Source: a virus
Lineage: Duplodnaviria; Caudoviricetes
DNA length: 54,836 nucleotides
Virus record (IMG/VR): IMGVR_UViG_3300020045_010314
Span: 1 to 54,836 of that record
Strand: one strand, 5' to 3'
Shown here: positions 937-52,648 of the stretch, piece after piece
Position numbering within the stretch: the first letter of the stretch is position 1
How the letters are laid out: every line of letters starts with the position of its first letter
Notes under the pieces: model-generated
What the model was told of the DNA's origin: nothing
Seen by the model: the letters and a program-made list of their open reading frames with translations, nothing else
Databases searched by the model: none
Position numbers and translations under genes: made by a program

Positions 937-1098
937 TTAGTTTGTTGCTACAATTCTAACTTCATGTAATCCGTTAGGATATACTTGTACAGAATTATAT
1001 TTGTCATATAATTTTTGTCTTTTATTGTTCGCTTTTCTGATTTCGGTTTCTGTTTCATAAGGCATTGTATAAACTACTTCTTTTTTAAAATTTCCCAT
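937..1098 (-). CDS. Hypothetical protein (53 aa)
   Basis: MGNFKKEVVYTMPYETE...; below the ORF-track cutoff. Confidence 0.6.
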   Translation of the reverse strand: MGNFKKEVVYTMPYETETEIRKANNKRQKLYDKYNSVQVYPNGLHEVRIVATN

Positions 1099-1204
1099 AA
1101 CTATAATTTTTAAATTTGGTTAAAACTCTTTGTTAAAATTGTTCCCAAGCCCCAAACGAATAAGGGTTAAAAGTCTTTAAACTTACAAGGGAGTTATAAT
1201 TGGT

Positions 1205-1471
1205 TTATTTAAAAAAATAATGCGTTTTAAGATATTCGCTTGTTTCTGTTTCCCAAGAGAAATTTTGTAAAAAGTCTTTTTTGCTTATGCGTTTAAAACT
1301 CGCTTTGTTTGGGTAAAATTCCTTTATGGTTTCTATTCCGGTTTTATCCTGGTTTTTTAGAATTTCCAAAAGTTCTTCGCCGGATTGAAAAATGAAGTTT
1401 TTACAAGTGCTTCGATATTGAAACGAAATTAAAAACGTTCTTAAGTCTGTGTTATAATATGATGTTTTCAT
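1205..1471 (-). CDS. Hypothetical early protein
   Basis: 88-aa ORF. Confidence 0.7.
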   Translation of the reverse strand: MKTSYYNTDLRTFLISFQYRSTCKNFIFQSGEELLEILKNQDKTGIETIKEFYPNKASFKRISKKDFLQNFSWETETSEYLKTHYFFK

Positions 1472-1475
1472 TTTG

Positions 1476-1652
1476 CTAATTATTTAAGATTTGAATATCA
1501 ATACATTTTTGAAAGTCTTCGACGGGATAAACTCCCAAATTAAAAGGCTTGCCGACAAAATATTTTCTGTTTTCGTCGTCGGTTGTTTTTGGGTTTACGC
1601 TTGTGATATAGTTGTAAATTGGATTTTCGAATATTACTTTTATCGTTTTCAT
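1476..1652 (-). CDS. Hypothetical protein (58 aa)
   Basis: MKTIKVIFENPIYNYITSVN...; ATGA-coupled to upstream ORF. Confidence 0.65.
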   Translation of the reverse strand: MKTIKVIFENPIYNYITSVNPKTTDDENRKYFVGKPFNLGVYPVEDFQKCIDIQILNN

Positions 1653-1807
1653 TTTTTCAATTGTTTAGGCGTTAAATCGATTTTAAAAGTTTCTTTGTGC
1701 CAATCACAAGCCAATAAAATAATATCTTTCATTGTGTGATAGCCTCCTTTGTCGATTGCTTTAAGTTTTAAAGCGTTGATTTGCTTAGTTGATTCTAATT
1801 GATTCAT
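1649..1807 (-). CDS. Hypothetical protein (52 aa)
   Basis: MNQLESTKQINALKLK...; fills the gap in the operon. Confidence 0.6.
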   Translation of the reverse strand: MNQLESTKQINALKLKAIDKGGYHTMKDIILLACDWHKETFKIDLTPKQLKK

Positions 1808-1814
1808 AATGCTT

Positions 1815-2321
1815 TTAATTTTGGGTTAATACCTTAACTTGTGGCGCAAAAATTCTCAAAATCAAATCATAATAATCTTTGTAAAATTTCAAATTGTGGC
1901 TAATTTGATTGTAATTAATTCCAAGAGTAGGAGCGAAAAAATCAGCTATTTGAATTTTGATAGTTCTAACAAAACTTTGCGCCTCCAATGCGGGACAATT
2001 GCCTTTTTTTGTTGGTTTTACTGGACAATCATCGGAATAATAAAAAGATTCTAATTCTTTAAAATAAATATTCCAATCTTCTTGTTTTAATTGATAGGCT
2101 TGTTTTTGGTCTAAAATAACTTCGGAAGGAATAACCCGATTATTATATATTTCCTCTTCTGTTTCAAACTTGTAAAAGTTTAAAATTTCGTTTGCTTTCT
2201 TTTCTACTATTTCAGTAATTAAATCACTAAATGCGATAGCCTCAAATAATGATTTGACAATTTTTACATTTTCTTCGTTATTGGCAAATTCTTTTAATTC
2301 TTGAGCGGTTAAATTATTCAT
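1815..2321 (-). CDS. Hypothetical early protein
   Basis: 168-aa ORF. Confidence 0.8.
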   Translation of the reverse strand: MNNLTAQELKEFANNEENVKIVKSLFEAIAFSDLITEIVEKKANEILNFYKFETEEEIYNNRVIPSEVILDQKQAYQLKQEDWNIYFKELESFYYSDDCPVKPTKKGNCPALEAQSFVRTIKIQIADFFAPTLGINYNQISHNLKFYKDYYDLILRIFAPQVKVLTQN

Positions 2322-2460
2322 AATATAAATTTTTGATTGTTGTTTTTTGATGTTGAAATTTGGCTAAAAGTCTTAAAACTAATAGCACACATTTAAAGAC
2401 TTTCCACCATATAAGGCGAAACTAATTTTGTCGAAGATTTTAGATAGTGTTTTCATTTGT

Positions 2461-2886
2461 TTAGTTGTTAGGGATCATATTAGATATTGTTGCACCGTTT
2501 TTTAAAGTGGTAAAATCTTGTTTCATCGGTTGAATAAATTTTCGATAATCAATTTTTTTAGGTTCTGGAAATAAATTTGATAGTATTAATAAATTGTATA
2601 ATTCATCAATGTTAAATGTTCCCAATGCTCCTGATCCTCCTTTTATTGCATTGCCTTTTTTATTGGTTTTACATAAACCGTATAAAAAATTACCTTCGCC
2701 TAAATCAATAACATTTGTTATTAATGCGTTATTTATATATGTTCCATAACCTACATAAATAAGTTTACAATTTGTAGCAGGATAACTTTGACCAATAGTC
2801 TCGTTATTTATAATTCTACCATTTGAAAAATCACCATAAAAAGATGTTCCTTCAAATATTCCAGATGTAACTAAAAATTTTTTCAT
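2461..2886 (-). CDS. Hypothetical early protein (first gene of leftward block)
   Basis: 141-aa ORF just downstream of a consensus promoter. Confidence 0.75.
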   Translation of the reverse strand: MKKFLVTSGIFEGTSFYGDFSNGRIINNETIGQSYPATNCKLIYVGYGTYINNALITNVIDLGEGNFLYGLCKTNKKGNAIKGGSGALGTFNIDELYNLLILSNLFPEPKKIDYRKFIQPMKQDFTTLKNGATISNMIPNN

Positions 2887-2936
2887 AATAATAATATATA
2901 AGATTAATAATGTGTGATTGTTTCGTTTTGATGTAG

Positions 2937-2997
2937 CAAATATATGTCAGAAGAATATATCCCGCAAATATATTTGGTAATTATTTCCATTTACAAA
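2937..2997 (-). promoter_or_regulatory. Tandem Bacteroidota sigma-70 promoters for leftward early genes
   Basis: TATATTTG at 2944-2937 and 2972-2965, each with TTTG 20-21 bp upstream (2968-2965, 2997-2994). Confidence 0.7.
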
Positions 2998-3884
2998 CGA
3001 CTAAGTTAATAAAGTGAGTGAAACCAATACTTCACAAGGATTTAATGTTATGAATAAAATCCTACAAAATAAAATAATACCTTCAAAACTCCCAAATAAA
3101 ACAAAGAAATACAAAGAGAAAAACACCAGGAACAAACAACAAAAAGCATCTAATTAAAATCATACACGAAAAGAAACAAAAACACCCAAACGAAATAAAC
3201 GCATATAAGCAGTTAAAAACGATTGACAATATAAACACATCACAATTAAATAATATTCAAGGAATACCGCCAAAACTACCCAATAAGACAGAAGTAAAGC
3301 ATAAGACAAAACACAAGACTATTTTATACTTCCTTAACTCTATTAATCTAGTAGAATTAAGATAAGATTAAAAGGTATGATATAGGGCTATCACAACACT
3401 AAATACGGCTAGTAATTGAAATTATATTTGTGTGCTGCTGCTGGTGATCTAATATGAAATAGTTTCCTATTGTTGATTGATAAAGTCGGAGTAAAACAGT
3501 ATTATAAATTGGTTAAGCCTTGTTATCATTGGGATTGATAGCTTAAATAGTTAATCATACTAAGATTAAGTTAGTAAATTAGTTATGCAAATGTGCTATT
3601 AATCCAGAAGTAAGGCCAATTTGAAACGATTTAGGAACTGAAAACCAAAAACAGCACCCACCCCATTGATTTATTACGTTTCCTTTGCTATGATTGACCC
3701 CGTATGATGGCATATAACCCCAACCCTCCTCTTTTCTCTCTAATATTAAACCTCCCCACGAGTATCAGCGTTAGGAGATTCGTAGGCTTGAATAAGCGCT
3801 TCCTTACGGGCGAAAAGGGGTATTCCTGTGTTCTTGGATAGGCGTTTTGGTTATCGTTGCTTACAAGGCTTTGTTTGGATTACA

Positions 3885-3956
3885 GAAATAGTTTCCATTG
3901 AAAGTGAAATTATTTCCATTTTTGTTAGGTTATGTGAAACTAATGGCGTAAATTTG
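3885..3956 (+). promoter_or_regulatory. Rightward promoter with two upstream GAAATWRTTTCCA boxes
   Basis: TAAATTTG at 3949-3956; boxes at 3885-3897 and 3906-3918. Confidence 0.55.
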
Positions 3957-3988
3957 CCTTGTTGAATTATTAGAGAGATTAGTTTAGT

Positions 3989-4029
3989 ACACCCTAAACC
4001 TCTAAATAGTAGTTATAGACACCCTAAAC
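3989..4029 (+). repeat. Direct repeat ACACCCTAAAC x2 (30-bp period), likely operator
   Basis: Copies at 3989-3999 and 4019-4029, immediately upstream of the RHH-like gene. Confidence 0.6.
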
Positions 4030-4039
4030 TAATTAAGAT

Positions 4040-4291
4040 ATGAGGCCATTAAAGTACGGTGAAGAAATGGTAAGAGTTCCTGTTAAGGTTCCTGCATCTT
4101 CTGTGGCGGAATTTAAGGTTATGGTTAGGGAGTTTTTGGATAAACGAGTTTTGGTTAAGAGTGAGGGAGTAAATGAGGGTGTAAAAGCTAAAAATGAAGG
4201 AGTAAAAATCAATCCTGAATTAATATCTGCTCCGGCCAAGCCAAAATGGATGTTGGACGCCGAGGAACGAATGAAAAGAAATAAAGTATGA
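4040..4291 (+). CDS. Putative ribbon-helix-helix DNA-binding protein
   Basis: RPLKYGEE-MVRVPVKVP-helix pattern typical of RHH/CopG-like proteins. Confidence 0.55.
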   Translation: MRPLKYGEEMVRVPVKVPASSVAEFKVMVREFLDKRVLVKSEGVNEGVKAKNEGVKINPELISAPAKPKWMLDAEERMKRNKV

Positions 4292-4418
4292 AAGTAATCT
4301 ATATGGCTGAAACTATTCATTTATTGGGCGACGAAAAAGCCACGGCACTCATCCCAAAAGGAACAGTAAAGAAAACAGAAGAAGGAATTCAGTATTTAGT
4401 AATAAACGAAGAGAAATT

Positions 4419-4652
4419 ATGATGGATAGAGTTTACAAGGAAATAAGAGGTTGCGTAGTGAGATTTGACGGTTACGAAGGCATTGTTTGCGGGTATTCAG
4501 ACGGGCGATATTTGGCGGCGACAGAAACCAAGCCCGAATGTTGTTTCCGGAAAATCGACAAAGGCACTACGATAGAAGACGATTTCAAAGATTCGAAATA
4601 CAGATATTTTTACGTGAATGAGGCGGATGTAATTAAACAACAGAAATTATGA
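4419..4652 (+). CDS. Hypothetical protein
   Basis: 77-aa ORF in coupled operon. Confidence 0.7.
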   Translation: MMDRVYKEIRGCVVRFDGYEGIVCGYSDGRYLAATETKPECCFRKIDKGTTIEDDFKDSKYRYFYVNEADVIKQQKL

Positions 4653-4738
4653 ATAAGGTCAGAGAGTTTTGGTCGTGGTTATTGAAGGAATTGCAGGAAA
4701 CGTCGGCGAATTGCCCAAAGGAAACTCGATGGTAGTAA

Positions 4739-15334: not shown

Positions 15335-15358
15335 ATATAGTGGAGTTCTGACTAAAAT

Positions 15359-15400
15359 AACCGACAACAAACGTTTGTAATTGTATAATTGTTACATTTG
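15359..15400 (+). promoter_or_regulatory. Late promoter motif copy 2
   Basis: AACCGACAACAAACGTTTG-N15-TACATTTG. Confidence 0.85.
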
Positions 15401-24280: not shown

Positions 24281-24322
24281 AAACGACAACAAATGTTTGT
24301 AAACATATAAAATTTACCTTTG
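24281..24322 (+). promoter_or_regulatory. Late promoter motif copy 4 (terminase, likely leaderless)
   Basis: AAACGACAACAAATGTTTG-N15-TACCTTTG, then 4 nt, then ATG. Confidence 0.85.
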
Positions 24323-24326
24323 TTTT

Positions 24327-26984
24327 ATGATTGGATTAAGTGACGATTTAGATTTAGCGATAAAAAATGCGATTGACGTATTGAACGCTCCAATTGACAT
24401 TACGGATGTTGATTCGGAGAAACTTGCTAATTTAATGAAATCTATTACAGATGGGTTTATTTACACTAAGGAATTAATAGTTTCTTGGGAAAACTCCCAA
24501 AACGCACCAAGTCATTCCAAGTTAAAAGGACATATAGAGAAACTTGTTGTAGCGGGAGAAAATTCTATTGAAATACTACGTAAAGCATTAAGAAAATCTA
24601 TTGAAATATCAGAAGTAGATGCTGAAAAATATGGAGTCTCAATTAAAGCAAAGCCAATTATTTTTAAAGCAATTAACGATATTAATGCAGGTATTTTAGA
24701 ATTAAAACTCCAAATAGAGGCTGACAAGTTTGACCTTAAGGCAAGGGAATTTCGTCGTGGTTATCCTGAAAAGTTTGCCAACCAAGAATTCTATCCCTTA
24801 AAAAACTACCACAAGGAATGGTATGATGAAGCAAGCGATAGTATTTTACTTTGTCCAAACGGCACAAAGGGAGAAATGATTACGCTTGACGGATTGAATA
24901 TTACCCTTCCTAAAAAACCAAAACAGACCGACATTCTTTTTCACAGAAAACAAAAAGACGAACAGTTTTGGAAAAGAGTAGAGACACCAAAGGGACTTAC
25001 CCCTGACAATGAAGAAGTCTATGCTTCATTCATATTAGAGGAATTTAAACGTAGACGCGAGGGATTATGGTTTATGAATAATGGAGAGGCAGTGTATCTT
25101 ACTCCTGCTCATTATATGGCGCTACAATGGATTAAAATGCTTGATACCGGAAGTTATATGGATTTCCGTTACGCGCAAAGAGATATGTTTTATTTCACCA
25201 AGGCTTGTTTTTTAGATAGGCGTTGTTTAGGAGAATTATTCGTTAAATCAAGACGTACTGGGTTTACCTATCAAATTATTTGCGAACATATTAATGACGG
25301 AACGTGTACTAGTAATGCTAAGTTGGGGATTGTTTCTAAGACAGGAGATGATGCCGAGGAAGCGTTCTTGAAATTATCCTATGGTATTCAAAATTTACCA
25401 TTCTTTTTTATTCCTGTTGTGAAAGGTAAAATAGATAGTAAAACTCAATTAGAATTTGGGAAGCCTTCAGACCAAAGCAAGCTTGCCAAACAGAAAAAAG
25501 ACAATAGTACCGATGATTATCTAAATACTATACTTGACTGGAAAACAACTACTGAAGGTGCTTATGACGGACAAAGAATGTACCGATTATTGGTAGATGA
25601 AGCAAGTAAACCTTTAAAGCCATTTAATCTAATTACCTATTTAGGACGTGTTTCTCCTACTATGAATAACGGCGGTAGAATCGTTGGAAAAATGCTAATC
25701 GGATCCACGGTTAATCCAAAATCGAAAGGTGGAGAGGAATTCGAAAAAGTTTATTTAGGGTCATTAGTAAAGAAAAGAAATATTCATACTCAAATGACAC
25801 CTACAGGATTATACGCTTATTTCCTTCCTGCACATAGAAATATGGAGGAGTTTACAGATAAGTTTGGAGTATGTCATACCGTAGTTGAAGAAGGTAAATT
25901 CTTTTACAATGTGCAAGGAATAAAGAAAACAAGTGGCTCTATTCATTACTTGGAAGCGGTTAGAAAATCTAAAAAAGCACAATCAGACATTCTTTATAAT
26001 GAAGAACTTAGGGCAAACCCTATGACAATTGATGAAGCGTTCCGTGATGAGCTTATATCCTCATTACTTAATCCAGACCGTATTAATGAGCAATTAACAC
26101 ATAACAACGATGTGGAAATTGAGAAAACATTAACAAGAGGGAATTTTTCTTGGAAAGACGGCATAGAGCACACAGAAGTAATATGGACACCAATGGAAAG
26201 AGGACGTATTCTAACCGGATGGCTTCCTCCAAAAGAAATGCAGAATAAGTGGGAAATGCGTAGGAATCTATTTGGAGGATTTAGTAAGCATCCTTTAAAT
26301 GAGGAATTAGGCGCTTTTGGATGTGATAACTATGACCAAGATTCTGTTCAAGGAAGTTTTCTTGAAGAAACAGAAAACGGATCAGAATATAAAGGAGGTT
26401 CAAGAGGTGCGTTTCACGGATTAACAGGGTTTAATTTAGACAATGTGCCAAACAACTATTTCTTTTTGGAATATATCACACGCCCACAAACGTCAGAGAT
26501 ATTCTATAATGATGTTTTAATGGCTTGTGTATTTTACGGAATGCCAATTCTTATAGAAAATAACAAGATGGGATTACTACAACACTTCTATAACAAAGGT
26601 TATAGAGGGTATAGTATAAGTAGGGTTGACAAAACTATGAATATGCTTTCGCAAACCGAGAAAAAATATGGAGGTATGCCAAGTTCCGGAGATGATGTAA
26701 TTACAAAGCATTGGACGGCAATAGAAGGATATATTGATAAATATGTTGGGATTTATTCCAAAGGAGATAATCAAACTGCCATACGAGAAGAAGGAGAACC
26801 AGGAAGCATGCCTTTTAATAGAACGCTTAAAGATTGGTTGAAATTCAACGTAACCAAAAGGACAGATTTTGATGCTTCTATATCATCAGGACTTGCGATT
26901 ATGGCAGTGAACAGAAAGCTATATCTACCGAAAGAGCAAGAAAAAAAACCATTCGTTTTAAACTTACACCGATATAAAAATTAG
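24327..26984 (+). CDS. terL: Terminase large subunit with N-terminal helical extension
   Basis: Walker A KSRRTGFT, Walker B LLVDEASK, GST coupling motif, nuclease GCD...ENNK...DASISSGLA. Confidence 0.92.
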   Translation: MIGLSDDLDLAIKNAIDVLNAPIDITDVDSEKLANLMKSITDGFIYTKELIVSWENSQNAPSHSKLKGHIEKLVVAGENSIEILRKALRKSIEISEVDAEKYGVSIKAKPIIFKAINDINAGILELKLQIEADKFDLKAREFRRGYPEKFANQEFYPLKNYHKEWYDEASDSILLCPNGTKGEMITLDGLNITLPKKPKQTDILFHRKQKDEQFWKRVETPKGLTPDNEEVYASFILEEFKRRREGLWFMNNGEAVYLTPAHYMALQWIKMLDTGSYMDFRYAQRDMFYFTKACFLDRRCLGELFVKSRRTGFTYQIICEHINDGTCTSNAKLGIVSKTGDDAEEAFLKLSYGIQNLPFFFIPVVKGKIDSKTQLEFGKPSDQSKLAKQKKDNSTDDYLNTILDWKTTTEGAYDGQRMYRLLVDEASKPLKPFNLITYLGRVSPTMNNGGRIVGKMLIGSTVNPKSKGGEEFEKVYLGSLVKKRNIHTQMTPTGLYAYFLPAHRNMEEFTDKFGVCHTVVEEGKFFYNVQGIKKTSGSIHYLEAVRKSKKAQSDILYNEELRANPMTIDEAFRDELISSLLNPDRINEQLTHNNDVEIEKTLTRGNFSWKDGIEHTEVIWTPMERGRILTGWLPPKEMQNKWEMRRNLFGGFSKHPLNEELGAFGCDNYDQDSVQGSFLEETENGSEYKGGSRGAFHGLTGFNLDNVPNNYFFLEYITRPQTSEIFYNDVLMACVFYGMPILIENNKMGLLQHFYNKGYRGYSISRVDKTMNMLSQTEKKYGGMPSSGDDVITKHWTAIEGYIDKYVGIYSKGDNQTAIREEGEPGSMPFNRTLKDWLKFNVTKRTDFDASISSGLAIMAVNRKLYLPKEQEKKPFVLNLHRYKN

Positions 26985-30131: not shown

Positions 30132-30153
30132 AAGGCAAATATACAAATAAAAT

Positions 30154-30195
30154 AACCGACAACAAACGTTTATAATCATTTATTACATAATTTTG
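30154..30195 (+). promoter_or_regulatory. Late promoter motif copy 5
   Basis: AACCGACAACAAACGTTTA-N15-TAATTTTG. Confidence 0.85.
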
Positions 30196-32786: not shown

Positions 32787-33815
32787 ATGGAACCACAAGT
32801 AAAAGAACATTGGAAAACTAAAGAAGTTAGAGAAGCGAAAGAAGCAGCAGAAAGATTAGCTTCGGGAGAAACTACCACAGAAACTCCTGCACAAGAAGAA
32901 CAAATAACTACAAATCAAAGTGCAGCGACTCCGGTTGTCAATATTGAAAAATTGATTGCAGATGCGGTAGCAAAAGCATTGGCGAATTTACCGCAACAAA
33001 CCAACGCACAGCAAAACTCTCCTGCCCCACAAATGTTTATGCAGCCCGTGGCATACGATATTGACGACGACATCGATGAATTGAAAGATTGGGAGGTAAA
33101 GGATAGAGAGTATCGTTTAATGGACGGGAAACGCCCTATTTCACATTCCATTCAGAGAGCGCATAGTGCCACAAGTGCAATGCAGTATTTCAACAAACGT
33201 ACAGGGAAAACTCATACGATGAGATGGAGTACAAACCAACCGTCATTTTTCGTGGAGAATCAGAGCAAGAACGCCGCCGACATCCTGGATGCAGAAATTG
33301 TTTTTGAATTTGGGACGTTGAAAGTTTACCAAAATAATCCGAACCTTCAAAAGTTCTTGCGCATACACCCATTAAACGGGATATTGTTCAAGGAATATAG
33401 TGCCATGGAGGAATCCCGCAAAAACGTGGTAGACAAGAAAACCAAAGCAAAAGCTTACAGTCTTATTGAAACTATTGGTTCGGCTACAAACAGAGCTATT
33501 TGTGCGTTAATTAACCCTACATACATCGATGATTGGAAATACGACCAAGTAGAAGAAGTAATTTACAATTACGCTGAATCTAACCCGAAAGAGTATATCG
33601 CCTACTGCGACGATCCAACGGTGAAGATAAAAGGAGTCGCTAAAACTGCCCTTGCCAAAGGAGAATTAGTTTGGAAGAACTACAAATTCTACGATAAAGA
33701 TGGAAATCTTATCTTGGAAACAGATAGAAATAAGGATGAGATGGACGAGATTGCGAGTTACTTCCAATCAGGAGCAGGAAGACAGCTTTATGAATACTTG
33801 ATGAATTTAAGCTAA
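32787..33815 (+). CDS. Conserved hypothetical protein of the head module
   Basis: 342 aa; MRWSTNQPSFFVENQ, LQKFLRIHP. Confidence 0.8.
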   Translation: MEPQVKEHWKTKEVREAKEAAERLASGETTTETPAQEEQITTNQSAATPVVNIEKLIADAVAKALANLPQQTNAQQNSPAPQMFMQPVAYDIDDDIDELKDWEVKDREYRLMDGKRPISHSIQRAHSATSAMQYFNKRTGKTHTMRWSTNQPSFFVENQSKNAADILDAEIVFEFGTLKVYQNNPNLQKFLRIHPLNGILFKEYSAMEESRKNVVDKKTKAKAYSLIETIGSATNRAICALINPTYIDDWKYDQVEEVIYNYAESNPKEYIAYCDDPTVKIKGVAKTALAKGELVWKNYKFYDKDGNLILETDRNKDEMDEIASYFQSGAGRQLYEYLMNLS

Positions 33816-33837
33816 AATACGTAAGGCTTGAATGTAG

Positions 33838-33870
33838 AAAACCCCGATTCTTTATTGAGTCGGGGTTTTT
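33838..33870. terminator. Bidirectional terminator (late gene / tRNA operon)
   Basis: A4-CCCCGATTC...GAGTCGGGG-T5. Confidence 0.8.
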
Positions 33871-33877
33871 AGTTTTG

Positions 33878-33958
33878 TACCGAAAATGGGACTCGAACCC
33901 ATAAAACCCTCGCTTCTAAGGCGAGATACTCTGCCATTCGTTTTTATGTCACTTCGGC
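33878..33958 (-). tRNA. tRNA-Leu(UAG), atypical
   Basis: Acceptor GCCGAAG/TTTCGGT, A73; anticodon arm CTCGC-CTTAGAA-GCGAG; short variable loop, enlarged D region. Confidence 0.8.
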
Positions 33959-33963
33959 GGTTG

Positions 33964-34035
33964 CTTTAGTAGAGAGATTCGAACTCCCATTGATAGGTTC
34001 GTAGCCTATAGTTCTATCCGTTAAACTATACTAAA
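33964..34035 (-). tRNA. tRNA-Arg(ACG)
   Basis: TTTAGTA/TACTAAA; ATAGG-CTACGAA-CCTAT; GGGAG-TTCGAAT-CTCTC. Confidence 0.9.
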
Positions 34036-34040
34036 ATTTG

Positions 34041-34114
34041 GGTGATGCACGAGAATCGAACTCGCATCAATAGATTCACAGTCTATCCGCTTAGCCATTT
34101 AGCGTAACGCCACC
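34041..34114 (-). tRNA. tRNA-His(GUG)
   Basis: G-1:C73; ATAGA-CTGTGAA-TCTAT; GCGAG-TTCGATT-CTCGT. Confidence 0.9.
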
Positions 34115-34119
34115 ATTTG

Positions 34120-34191
34120 TTGAAATATTAGGATTCGAACCTAAATAGCGAAATTCAAAGTTTCGTATGCTAACCGTTGCATCATATTTCA
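34120..34191 (-). tRNA. tRNA-Gln(UUG)
   Basis: TGAAATA/TATTTCA; CGAAA-CTTTGAA-TTTCG; TTAGG-TTCGAAT-CCTAA. Confidence 0.92.
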
Positions 34192-34197
34192 GTTTAG

Positions 34198-34271
34198 TAG
34201 AATAGAGTGGATTCGAACCACCTATACACTGACCCAGCCAGTTACCAGTTTCCAATTACTGTATCTACTCT
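34198..34271 (-). tRNA. tRNA-like element with aberrant anticodon arm (TGG in loop)
   Basis: Intact acceptor AGAGTAG/CTATTCT, D arm and T arm; anticodon arm ACTG-GCTGGGT-CAGT lacks U33. Confidence 0.6.
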
Positions 34272-34278
34272 ATATTTG

Positions 34279-34351
34279 TCGCATAGGCAAGACTCGAACT
34301 TGCAATCTCCCGCTTCCAAGGCGGGCGCGTAACCAATTTTGTCACTACGCG
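34279..34351 (-). tRNA. tRNA-Pro(UGG)
   Basis: CGCGTAG/CTATGCG, C1-G72, A73; CCCGC-CTTGGAA-GCGGG; weak D stem. Confidence 0.85.
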
Positions 34352-34355
34352 AAAT

Positions 34356-34388
34356 AAAAAAAGCCTTCTCGGTTTGAGAAGGCTTTTT
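34356..34388 (-). terminator. Attenuator terminator directly upstream of the tRNA operon
   Basis: GCCTTCTC-AAACC-GAGAAGGC-T7, ending 4 nt before tRNA-Pro. Confidence 0.85.
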
Positions 34389-34410
34389 ATGTGTTTATAT
34401 TTTTTAAATA

Positions 34411-34485
34411 TTATCCATACCAAGTACTTCCCAAAAAGAGATTATGTAGCGGAAGGCATTGGATATTTATTTTTAATGTTTTCAT
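34411..34485 (-). CDS. Putative attenuator leader peptide MKTLKINIQCLPLHNLFLGSTWYG
   Basis: ATG 4 nt after TAAGTTTG; CNN codons at positions 9, 11, 12, 13, 14 and 16 only. Confidence 0.7.
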   Translation of the reverse strand: MKTLKINIQCLPLHNLFLGSTWYG

Positions 34486-34489
34486 AGGA

Positions 34490-34539
34490 CAAACTTACAA
34501 CAAATAACAATACGAATTACAAAATATGGAAACTATTTC
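34490..34539 (-). promoter_or_regulatory. tRNA operon promoter with upstream GAAATAGTTTCCA box
   Basis: TAAGTTTG at 34497-34490; box at 34539-34527. Confidence 0.65.
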
Positions 34540-34565
34540 ACTTTGCGTGTGAAATTTCAAAAAAC

Positions 34566-34607
34566 AACCGACAACAAATGTTTGCAAATGAATAATGAAT
34601 ATCTTTG
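34566..34607 (+). promoter_or_regulatory. Late promoter motif copy 6
   Basis: AACCGACAACAAATGTTTG-N15-TATCTTTG. Confidence 0.85.
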
Positions 34608-34627
34608 TTACAGAAAATAATATCAAT

Positions 34628-35347
34628 ATGATTAGTATAAATCGCGTAAGGAATACAGTGTTATTCTTATTAAACAAATCCAACCGCGGAAATATCGGCG
34701 TACAAGAGTTTGACGCTTTTTGTCATCTTGCTCAAATGGACTTATTTGAGAATTTGTTTTACAGATTGAACAAGCATACGAACAACCAAACTAAGAAATA
34801 CGTAAACTCCGAGTATGCCGACATAGTTCAGAACATTCAGGAGCAAATCGATGTTTTTGCTGATTATTCAACCCCCGCTAATTTCACGTATAACACACCA
34901 AATAATGTATGGAGTTATTCAGGAGGAAACTTGTATCGTAGTGAAGGACTGACTTTAATTAACGCGGCAGGAAAGCGCCGTGATGTGCAAGAAGTACATA
35001 AAGGGTATGAGTTGAATATCGCATCGAAAGAAGCCACAAACACCTATCCTATTTACACCAAGATTGGTAATTCGTACAGGATCTACCCTACTCTAACTGC
35101 CGGATATACCACTGAACTATTTTTTATTCGCACTCCCAAAACTCCTAAATGGACTTATGTATTGTCGGGAGGAAATCCTGTTTACAATGCGGGAGCCGGA
35201 GATTTGCAAGACTTTGAACTTTCGGAAGTGATGTTTCCTCTTTTGGTAGCGAAAATATTATCGTATTGCGGAATCTCCATCAAGGAAAATGATGTGGCTG
35301 CCATCGCCGACAATGAAGGAGTACAAACCGAACAAAAACAATCCTAA
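34628..35347 (+). CDS. Head-tail adaptor/ring protein (putative)
   Basis: Start revised to MISINRVRNTV because the track ATG lies inside the promoter; RTPKTPKWTY, DFEL motifs. Confidence 0.65.
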   Translation: MISINRVRNTVLFLLNKSNRGNIGVQEFDAFCHLAQMDLFENLFYRLNKHTNNQTKKYVNSEYADIVQNIQEQIDVFADYSTPANFTYNTPNNVWSYSGGNLYRSEGLTLINAAGKRRDVQEVHKGYELNIASKEATNTYPIYTKIGNSYRIYPTLTAGYTTELFFIRTPKTPKWTYVLSGGNPVYNAGAGDLQDFELSEVMFPLLVAKILSYCGISIKENDVAAIADNEGVQTEQKQS

Positions 35348-51676: not shown

Positions 51677-51909
51677 TTACTTAAAACCTGTTCTATTATC
51701 CTAATATCCCTACCCGAAACAGATTTCTTTTCCTTGAGGTAGTTAATTCCTTTTCTTATGGCCCATTTGTAGTTTTGCCAAAATTCGTCGAGAGTTCGCA
51801 TCTTGAAATACATTTTTTGGATTTCTGTGTTCTTGATGTTTTTGAATTCTTCCGTGTGTTGGATTGCTTCTTTGAATCCGTATAAGTCTAAAGTGGTGTG
51901 TTCAATCAT
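51673..51909 (-). CDS. Hypothetical protein
   Basis: 78 aa. Confidence 0.7.
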   Translation of the reverse strand: MIEHTTLDLYGFKEAIQHTEEFKNIKNTEIQKMYFKMRTLDEFWQNYKWAIRKGINYLKEKKSVSGRDIRIIEQVLSK

Positions 51910-51919
51910 TTTGTTTTGT

Positions 51920-52648
51920 TTAGTTTAGTTCGGTTAGTTTTTGTTGGTAAAATTTTCTGACTTCTTCGAGTTCGGCTCGATCCCAATGGTAATCGTTTTT
52001 CTTGTATGATTTTGCTTTGTCGTCGAGATAGGTAAGATGCTCCATTCCGTATCTTTGGATTATTCCGGCCCGATACCCGCTTTCGTTTCCTTCTTTTCGG
52101 AGGTTACATTTTCGGCATTGTCCGGAAATATTCTTTTCGTCAAATTTCAAATTTGAGAAAAGCTCTGCCTTGTAAAAATGCCCTGCCTGAAAATCTTCTA
52201 AATGAGGAATCCCACAACTAATGCAAGGTTTTCCAATATCCCGAAGACGAATGTACTCATGGCAAACACTTCTTACATTTATCAAAAGTGTTCCAAGTTT
52301 GTTTCGGTCTTTACGGTCCTTAAATGCTTTTTCTAAACCGAGTCTTGGAGCCGAAGCCTCAATAGTGATTCGTTTTAGTTTTGCTGCACCTTCAGGAGAT
52401 TCTAAAAGCCATTTTGAATAGCATTTGCACTTTATTCCTAATCCGTGAATTCTTTCAGCTTGAGGATTTCCGCAGCCATATCCTTTTGCAATTGTAAGTC
52501 CTTTGCATTTTTGGGTTTTTATAGCTGATTTCACGGCTACTTTTCCTTGTTGGTATTCGTTTTTAGCTTCTTTACAATCCGGTGAATCGCAAAATTTATC
52601 AAGGAAAAACTTTGGTTCAAACTTTACTTTGCAGTTATTACATCTCAT
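51920..52648 (-). CDS. ninG: NinG/Rap-like recombination endonuclease
   Basis: YIRLRD..PCISCG, AGHFY, FDEKNISGQCRKCN. Confidence 0.85.
   Translation of the reverse strand: MRCNNCKVKFEPKFFLDKFCDSPDCKEAKNEYQQGKVAVKSAIKTQKCKGLTIAKGYGCGNPQAERIHGLGIKCKCYSKWLLESPEGAAKLKRITIEASAPRLGLEKAFKDRKDRNKLGTLLINVRSVCHEYIRLRDIGKPCISCGIPHLEDFQAGHFYKAELFSNLKFDEKNISGQCRKCNLRKEGNESGYRAGIIQRYGMEHLTYLDDKAKSYKKNDYHWDRAELEEVRKFYQQKLTELN

Follow-up and report, generated by a model that had tools for sequence, protein, structure and literature searches.

Phage transfer RNA (tRNA) genes are usually seen as passive helpers of codon usage or as spares against tRNA-cleaving defences, and to our knowledge the control of their expression is largely unaddressed. 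When does a phage transcribe such genes? The question is raised by the IMG/VR virus record IMGVR_UViG_3300020045_010314 (54,836 bases, with a completeness estimate of 73%; analysed over its whole length and called the window below), in which a promoter, a 24-codon open reading frame (ORF), a terminator and six tRNA genes follow one another on the minus strand, together forming a cassette (33873..34554) that is an insertion relative to closer relatives. An initial annotation of this DNA had proposed that the ORF encodes the leader peptide of an attenuator, which senses ribosomes stalling on codons that begin with C (CNN codons) and gates the tRNA operon. Our analysis indicates that the ORF is very probably a translated regulatory leader, the codons of which are matched to the tRNAs encoded behind it, and that it is likely to work as a classical attenuator, in which stalling on the codon run would give read-through into the phage tRNA operon.

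The order, spacing and codons of the unit are as first described, according to the sequence, the ORF list and ARAGORN. A Bacteroidota-type -7 box, TAAGTTTG (34490..34497, minus strand, read 34497-34490), stands 4 nucleotides (nt; TCCT) ahead of the ATG at 34485, and a TTTG at 34520..34523 of the same strand, 22 nt upstream of this box and read from the sequence, is a candidate -33 element according to the Bacteroidota promoter consensus, which we take to be TTTG / TAnnTTTG. The leader ORF (34411..34485, minus strand) has 24 codons and a TAA (34413-34411) and encodes the peptide MKTLKINIQCLPLHNLFLGSTWYG. Codons 9-16 (34438..34461), CAA TGC CTT CCG CTA CAT AAT CTC, form the putative regulatory run: six of the eight begin with C and are read by downstream tRNAs, and no codon elsewhere in the leader begins with C. 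Behind the run lies a G-rich strand, TTTTGGGAAGTACTTG (segment 2, 34421..34436), with two possible partners, namely segment 1 (34451..34465), the 5' strand of a leader hairpin that sequesters segment 2, or the 5' arm and loop of the terminator. An A/T-rich spacer of 22 nt (34389..34410), which is conserved in L011, L012, L219 and L220, leads from the stop codon to an intrinsic terminator (34356..34388; stem 34388-34358, T7 run to 34356) of 13 pairs, five of them G-C, with a stability (-18.1 kcal/mol, z -8.45) that none of 200 shuffles equalled. Four nt (ATTT) separate the T-run from the start of tRNA-Pro at 34351. A separate promoter between the terminator and tRNA-Pro was considered and rejected: the 4-nt gap has no room for one, and the window sequence holds no TAnnTTTG between the terminator and the tRNAs.

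The 4-nt spacing between the -7 box and the ATG implies that the predicted leader messenger RNA (mRNA) would be leaderless or nearly so. The window holds 4 copies of the pattern TAnnTTTG-N4-ATG, with 1.03 expected, one of them in an arrangement that is the same as that of the tRNA leader (TACCTTTG at 24315-24329, 4 nt, then the ATG of an 885-amino-acid ORF, 24327-26984), and leaderless starts therefore look normal for this phage.

How much does the codon run tell by itself? Counting as cognate the 15 codons of five tRNA species, with U34 allowed all four codons of a family box, at least 6 cognate codons are found in 306 of the 109,626 eight-codon stretches in the six frames of the window, and the density of 6 in 8 is matched by 36 of 20,000 stop-free shuffles of the leader ORF. 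The codon run by itself is modestly above chance; it is far above chance only when its position and the comparative data are taken into account.

Comparators came from several sources. We fetched 80 loci encoding relatives of a neighbouring virion protein, scanned 44 of them for tRNAs and searched the full records behind 37 of the 80; only 3 of these records contained any tRNA, and only one (G002, the record of L011) an array, so that this protein family yielded few comparators. A minus-strand tRNA array was found at the window's site, beside a homologue of the gene at 34595-35347, in L010, L011 and L012. It encodes Tyr, Phe, Leu UAA, Ser UGA, Ser GCU, Cys and Leu UAG and has the layout TACATTTG, 4 nt, a 21-codon ORF (MKTQSLYLSFCYSLISGKTSV), an A/T spacer and a terminator; codons 5-14 of this leader (AGT TTA TAT CTA TCA TTT TGT TAT TCG CTT) are, all ten of them, read by its own array. 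L015 encodes Tyr, Leu UAA, Ser UGA, Ser GCU and Leu UAG in an array about 3.3 kilobases from the shared gene, with the leader MKTTSLYLSLSLSLSSGDFVIG. A scan for a -7 box followed by ATG AAA ACA, using the pattern TANNTTTGNNNTATGAAAACA, gave at least 119 stretches; among the matches listed, most were ordinary gene starts and the new units were L188 and L191. A further unit, in L201/L153, was found by accident and is positioned away from the TANNTTTGNNNTATGAAAACA match. Two additional tRNA matches lie in G002 at 51896-52233, far from its main array, and one of them spans 108 nt, which may reflect an intron or an insertion.

Units of the same kind were found in Cellulophaga phages. In phi19:1 there is one, with the leader run H I Q R L P Q P before tRNAs for Pro, Gln, His, Leu and Arg, and in phi38:1 and Calle_1 there are three each. 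The run of unit 1, I M N I A T D I R T K G V K, precedes tRNAs for Lys, Ile, Gly, Met, Asp, Thr, Val, Arg UCU and Ile UAU; that of unit 2, Y N N F S W Y S N C S F S S Y N, precedes Tyr, Ser, Ser, Asn, Trp, Phe and Cys; and that of unit 3, L L H Q E P L E Q L R L P, precedes Pro, Glu, Gln, His, Leu and Arg. The three operons (L217, phi38:1, 1080-4700; L205/L216, Calle_1) split the genetic code, one being mostly ANN/GNN, one mostly UNN with Asn and Ser-AGY, and one mostly CNN with Glu, and each starts with a common promoter box, GTTGTATATTT.

Every leader was then scored against the tRNA set of every unit (n = 10 units with six distinct tRNA sets). With its own set, the best 8-codon stretch contains 6-8 cognate codons in each of the ten units, and the own-set score is the row maximum in all ten rows, ties occurring mainly with sets that are related or overlap; the observed total was not reached in any of 200,000 permutations of sets to leaders. 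When only the six non-redundant units are considered (window, L011, L188, L201 and phi38:1 units 1 and 2), the identity is the only one among 720 permutations that attains the sum, and whole-ORF cognate fractions were likewise matched by 0 of 100,000 permutations. The share of a unit's own tRNA species with a codon in the leader is 0.8-1.0. The ATG frame of the ten units contains 139 cognate codons and the other two frames 62 and 56; this frame specificity therefore favours translation of the leader and disfavours a frame-free RNA-RNA recognition. All ten units also have a short ORF with start and stop right behind the promoter and ahead of the tRNAs, the spacing from -7 box to ATG is 4 nt in eight of them, and the stop codon lies at least 22 nt before the terminator stem in every case.

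The second line of evidence is the alternative pairing. The whole leader folds with -32.6 kcal/mol (z -5.42), and in its 5' domain (the 1:2 pairing; -14.5 kcal/mol, z -1.97) the pyrimidine-rich run and its surroundings pair with the 3' part of the ORF, so that the G-run is sequestered. Segment 1 corresponds to leader nt 21-31 in this minimum-energy fold and to nt 24-35 in the register first proposed; the helix in the latter register is feasible (-8.2 kcal/mol) but suboptimal, the minimum-energy fold being at -14.5, and its two arms stay intact despite the substitutions in L219 and L220. The other pairing that had been proposed, of segment 2 with the terminator arm, coincides exactly with the best duplex found by RNAduplex for segment 2 and the terminator 5' arm (-10.3 kcal/mol in the window). 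When leader nt 1-39 are removed, as if a ribosome occupied the early part of the run, and the terminator 3' arm is left out, UUUGGGAAG..CUU pairs with AAG.CCUUCUCAAA (-13.3 kcal/mol, z -2.89). In each of the ten units, what pairs best with the terminator 5' arm is a G-rich stretch that follows the codon run and precedes the stop codon. Dinucleotide shuffling gives p = 0.046 for this antiterminator pairing in the window and 0.008-0.24 in the ten units (Fisher's combined p 5e-7, over units that are not fully independent), and when own and swapped terminators are compared only 3 of 100,000 permutations match or beat the own ones.

The codon/tRNA covariation and the G-rich complementarity, each seen in ten units, thus support the core of the initial annotation, a leader-peptide attenuator, and the conservation in related phages that it had named as a check is found for codon matching, with codons that follow each tRNA set, and for the potential to form the alternative pairing. 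Its narrower claim, a sensor for CNN codons as such, has to be given up, as the relatives use Tyr/Phe/Ser/Cys/Leu, Lys/Ile/Gly/Met/Asp/Thr/Val/Arg and other sets; a trigger through TrmD/m1G37 would thus be a speculative addition to the core reading.

From these parts we propose the following circuit. Host RNA polymerase, on which phi38:1 relies according to the passages of its transcriptome paper that bear on this (PMC5335546), would start at or next to the ATG, 4 nt behind the -7 box, and a ribosome would translate the 24-codon leader while the polymerase proceeds. If the run (Gln, Leu, Pro, Leu, His, Leu) is read fast, the ribosome would come to lie over or on segment 2, or segment 1 would re-pair; the terminator hairpin would then form and transcription would end 4 nt before tRNA-Pro, an outcome also expected if the leader is not translated. 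If charged cognate tRNA is scarce, reading would be slow, the stalled ribosome would hold segment 1 and segment 2 would pair with the terminator 5' arm, so that the polymerase would pass through the six tRNA genes and ribonuclease P (RNase P) and other nucleases would free the tRNAs. These new tRNAs would speed the reading of the leader codons and close the unit, giving a negative feedback on tRNA supply; because the products are tRNAs reading the run, the circuit would be a homeostat for decoding capacity. Candidates for the natural trigger are a low host supply, the decay of host tRNAs late in infection and a tRNA-targeting defence.

A number of observations weigh against this interpretation. 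The mechanism is proposed here from sequence, from which the direction of the switch is not provable. To judge from the size of its footprint, a ribosome stalled on the last codons of the run (e.g. codon 16) would cover segment 2, and because of this the effective codons would be fewer than six, only the earlier ones (9-13). As for the codons themselves, a density of 6 cognate codons in 8 is reached by 12 of the window's 299 ATG-initiated ORFs with 15-45 codons; strict wobble leaves only 4 of the 23 leader codons cognate (0.17), which is not the highest value of that row; CTT and CTC are cognate only if the U34 of tRNA-Leu(UAG) reads all four CUN codons; and the window leader has no Arg codon despite a tRNA-Arg, while its codon 10, TGC, has no matching tRNA. 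The antiterminator is weaker than the terminator (-13.3 versus -18.1 kcal/mol), with a window p of just 0.046, is poor in L011 (-6.7 kcal/mol, p 0.24), and belongs to a somewhat generic kind of G-rich/pyrimidine-rich pairing, since the window leader with the L191 terminator gives -10.4. The loci were gathered via homologues and Bacteroidota-type patterns, and the statistics accordingly test covariation, not prevalence. A convincing leader was absent from the tRNA clusters of L149 (two clusters), L199, L144/L186 and L152, L149 and L199 having at least three tRNAs; for L088 the upstream sequence examined was 62 nt. Finally, at 2932-3062 of L219 both leader and terminator are intact (86.6% identity to those of the window), yet no tRNA genes follow.

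The alternative that survives best, although we consider it unlikely, keeps the same parts and gives them another read-out: slow decoding would lead to termination, as a positive feedback, or the position of the ribosome would set the processing or stability of the precursor. It draws on a switch direction that cannot be derived from sequence, on the geometry of a ribosome at the stop codon, which would cover only the 3' half of segment 2, and on a terminator that is more stable than the antiterminator. Against this, the distance between stop codon and terminator stem in all ten units means that a translating ribosome could not melt the terminator, segment 2 immediately follows the codon run, a position from which stalling releases such a strand in classical attenuators, and a positive feedback would require a starting trigger from outside.

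Close variants of the window's leader bear on two further alternatives. Two leader-derived patterns led to L219, a viral contig, and L220, a metagenome contig (L218 was a chance match to the second pattern), and assembled contigs of four sequencing runs, X1, X3 and X5 among them, were used for variants and joints, those of X1/X3 giving a fourth variant. The three full sequences (window, L219, L220) share 84-87% nucleotide identity between the -7 box and the T-run; changes among these window-type leaders are concentrated in codons 3-6, conservation being highest in the run, in segment 2 and in the terminator. Codon 13 is CTA or CAA and codon 14 CAT or CAC, all of them cognate. At codon 10 the window has TGC, whereas L219 and the X1/X3 contigs have CGC (Arg) and L220 has CAC (His); tRNA-Arg is kept in the X1/X3 contigs and missing from the array of L220 (Pro, Gln, His, Leu). 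A rule that codon 10 follows the array is fitted by two of the four variants; the window does not fit, its Cys codon being one transition from CGC, and L219 is uninformative. The flanking proteins of L219 are 57% and 42% identical to the window's; as its leader is far more alike than these proteins, the leader-terminator piece must have been exchanged recently, and most simply the tRNAs of L219 would have been lost after this exchange. The L219 hairpin now terminates the neighbouring structural gene.

These comparisons make it highly improbable that the ORF arose by chance, the hairpin being a two-way insulator of convergent transcription and the tRNAs being made by constitutive leak-through. 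The terminator at 34356..34388 is palindromic, with A- and T-tracts that make it terminator-like on both strands, 4% of the small ORFs in the window have an equally dense CNN run, and L219 uses its hairpin behind a structural gene with no tRNAs, all of which would suit such an insulator; but a chance ORF would not be expected to have codons that covary with the tRNA sets of ten units (0/200,000 permutations) and do so in a frame-specific way, nor to keep its frame and length in L219 and L220 though the flanking proteins are only 42-57% identical. We give as little credence to a small ORF that encodes a functional peptide, with the codon match a by-product of shared cassette ancestry. The C-terminal LGSTWYG and N-terminal MK are conserved in the window, L219 and L220, L219 retains the ORF without tRNAs, and phi38:1 annotates two ORFs that overlap leader ORFs, gp066 and gp070, as hypothetical proteins; however, the units share no leader sequence beyond MK(T/N), their codon content tracks the tRNA set, and the conserved 3' part coincides with segment 2 and its partners, so that constraints on the RNA would explain it. 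Least credible of all is a T-box-like sensor, in which the run pairs directly, with no translation, with the anticodons of uncharged tRNAs: tRNA-sensing antiterminators exist and the leader does enumerate the codons of its tRNAs, but these codons lie in one frame, with an ATG at a fixed promoter distance and a stop codon, one short RNA would need to bind up to nine different tRNAs, and no T-box was found among 28 Rfam matches at E up to 10 in 34300-34620 nor in 8 related loci at E up to 1.

The cassette as a whole also appears to have moved. The closest relatives, L006 and L007 (87-88% amino-acid identity in the flanking protein), have no tRNA; L007 has, where the window has 682 extra bases, one terminator between the flanks, the hairpin of which is that of the window at 33837..33870, and in contigs of relatives from runs X1, X3 and X5 position 33872 is joined to 34555, with 682 nt skipped. 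Because L006/L007 and the contigs of three runs lack it, 33873-34554 is a single insertion. In L220 the cassette stands in a different gene neighbourhood and is co-oriented with its neighbours. Judged from these joints and positions, the cassette behaves as a mobile module. A larger picture, which we offer tentatively and regard as rather doubtful, is a self-contained supply of tRNAs on demand that moves between unrelated flavobacterial phages with its leader rewritten codon by codon, and for which the loss of host tRNAs would be the trigger, making it an inducible counter-defence. The trigger would then be a defence that cleaves or depletes tRNAs, or decay induced by the phage during infection, and tRNAs with unusual anticodon loops (A37 in Pro and Leu) would be delivered only when those of the host fail.

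The array itself (34351-33877, minus strand, with inter-tRNA gaps of 4-20 nt) was called by ARAGORN, and four of the six calls pass the Rfam tRNA cut-off. It begins with tRNA-Pro (UGG; 34278..34351, 51.2 bits, A37), followed by a second Pro-like element (34197..34271), found by ARAGORN only and below the Rfam cut-off, the distorted anticodon loop of which, GCTGGGT, has G37 and no U33; this element, absent in L220 and substituted in the X1/X3 contigs, is probably not a decoding tRNA. Then come tRNA-Gln (UUG; 34119..34191, 64.3 bits), tRNA-His (GUG; 34040..34113, 46.6 bits), tRNA-Arg (ACG; 33963..34035, 59.8 bits) and an atypical tRNA-Leu (UAG; 33877..33942), which ARAGORN gives as 66 nt with the anticodon at position 25 and which is below the Rfam cut-off. 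This odd tRNA-Leu(UAG) is conserved as the last gene of three arrays (window, L011 and L220). Position 37 is A in all five intact tRNAs (loops CTTGGAA, CTTTGAA, CTGTGAA, CTACGAA and CTTAGAA), and by eye the tRNA-Pro of phi19:1, phi38:1 and L220 has A37 too. Such loops could conceivably protect these tRNAs from an agent that disables those of the host, which would make them the resistant tRNAs of the initial annotation. In the X1/X3 contigs, from a relative about 90% identical, 107 other letters replace 132 nt (34145-34278; the Pro-like element and the start of tRNA-Gln), and the content of the array is therefore in flux even among close relatives. The hairpin at 33837..33870, a second terminator working on both strands and with 14 pairs on the plus strand, ends both the tRNA array and the plus-strand gene at 32787-33815. 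An inverted repeat TTTCAC-N7-GTGAAA (34536..34554, minus strand, read from the sequence), which lies before the leader promoter at the cassette's upstream edge, may be an operator and so a second layer of control.

Nearly all large genes of the window are on the plus strand; those near the cassette match phage virion-protein families, and the minus-strand cassette lies between two plus-strand structural genes, 32787-33815 and 34595-35347. A motif repeated 5' of plus-strand structural genes (34561-34596, 15354-15389, 24281-24303 and 30149-30171; copies 86-91% identical) is probably a late promoter or operator. A dyad motif of this late-promoter-like type contains the candidate -33 TTTG of the leader in L011 and L219, where the late promoter and the promoter of the tRNA leader would diverge and overlap. 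Megablast with 33800-34700 as query found no match among phage records, and a distant-mode search of the same stretch found 9 Cellulophaga phage records, over tRNA genes only (10-17% of the query). Because the only cultured relatives at the DNA level are thus Cellulophaga phages, over the tRNA genes alone, the host is probably a member of the Bacteroidota, likely of the Flavobacteriia.

If the proposed attenuation is true, the phage would gauge decoding speed at just those codons that its tRNAs read and would top up only what is lacking, so that the feedback would bear on the translation apparatus and not on the synthesis of amino acids. The cultured Cellulophaga phages would make several questions testable: when phage tRNAs are needed, whether transcription and translation are coupled in Bacteroidota, whether leaderless mRNAs serve in regulation, and whether tRNA-targeting defences induce phage tRNAs. 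A small ORF and a terminator before a tRNA array could serve as an annotation rule, which would re-label phi38:1 gp066 and gp070, and the leader could be a compact programmable part, in which altered codons give altered sensing. The view that no phage equivalent has been described agrees with our literature searches: full-text literature, with subscription journals thinly covered, gave no leader peptide or attenuator before tRNA genes of phage or host, and those passages of the phi38:1 transcriptome paper (PMC5335546) that deal with tRNAs and codons are about host tRNA genes and mention no leader control.

Several known systems resemble the unit in part. The leader-peptide attenuators of enterobacterial amino-acid operons (trpL, hisL, pheL, leuL and the multivalent thrL and ilvL/ivbL) share with it the short ORF behind the promoter, the regulatory codon run, the intrinsic terminator and the segment that can pair two ways; the order of energies is also theirs, with 1:2 about equal to 2:3 and both weaker than the terminator, and like thr and ilv the window leader would sense several amino acids at once. 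Unlike them, the phage unit controls tRNAs and not biosynthetic enzymes, so that the product would act on the sensed step, it is carried by a phage on a mobile 682-base-pair cassette with a seemingly leaderless mRNA, and it lists up to nine tRNA species once or a few times each in place of a long one-codon run. The Rfam models of such leaders score below their cut-offs (Phe_leader 29.2 versus 55, Thr_leader 23.3 versus 55, Trp_leader 17.9 versus 41), the Phe_leader alignment covering essentially the terminator only. The top leader family in the scan is Bacteroid-trp (RF01692), a trp leader of Bacteroidota, by inference the phylum of the window's host; it aligns end to end over the AUGAAAA start, a long-range helix, the A/U-rich spacer (AAAuAUAUA...AAAAAGG) and the start of the terminator arm, at 30.9 bits against a cut-off of 49 (E 0.05-0.09), which is below membership. 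The window leader differs from this family in having a single TGG (codon 22), no Trp run and tRNA genes in place of trp genes downstream, and the likeness would be one of architecture, possibly of descent, not of membership; as all leader-type matches are below the cut-offs, we file the element under no Rfam family.

The pheST operon of Escherichia coli, with its pheM leader, comes close in another respect, since its leader-peptide attenuation acts on part of the machinery that translates the very amino acid being sensed, but it controls a synthetase, senses one amino acid and is chromosomal. T-box riboswitches are likewise transcription antiterminators that report tRNA status; they differ in binding one uncharged tRNA directly, with no translation. 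The mgtL and mgtCBR leader ORFs of Salmonella sense Pro codons and control a Mg2+ transporter and virulence genes through Rho- or attenuator-based mechanisms. In them, as proposed for the window, decoding speed at given leader codons sets read-through, but the window leader has a single Pro codon, and the codons of its relatives follow the tRNA set, not proline or m1G37. What would be new in the phage unit is a known switch placed on a new class of target, tRNA genes, in phages and on a mobile cassette.

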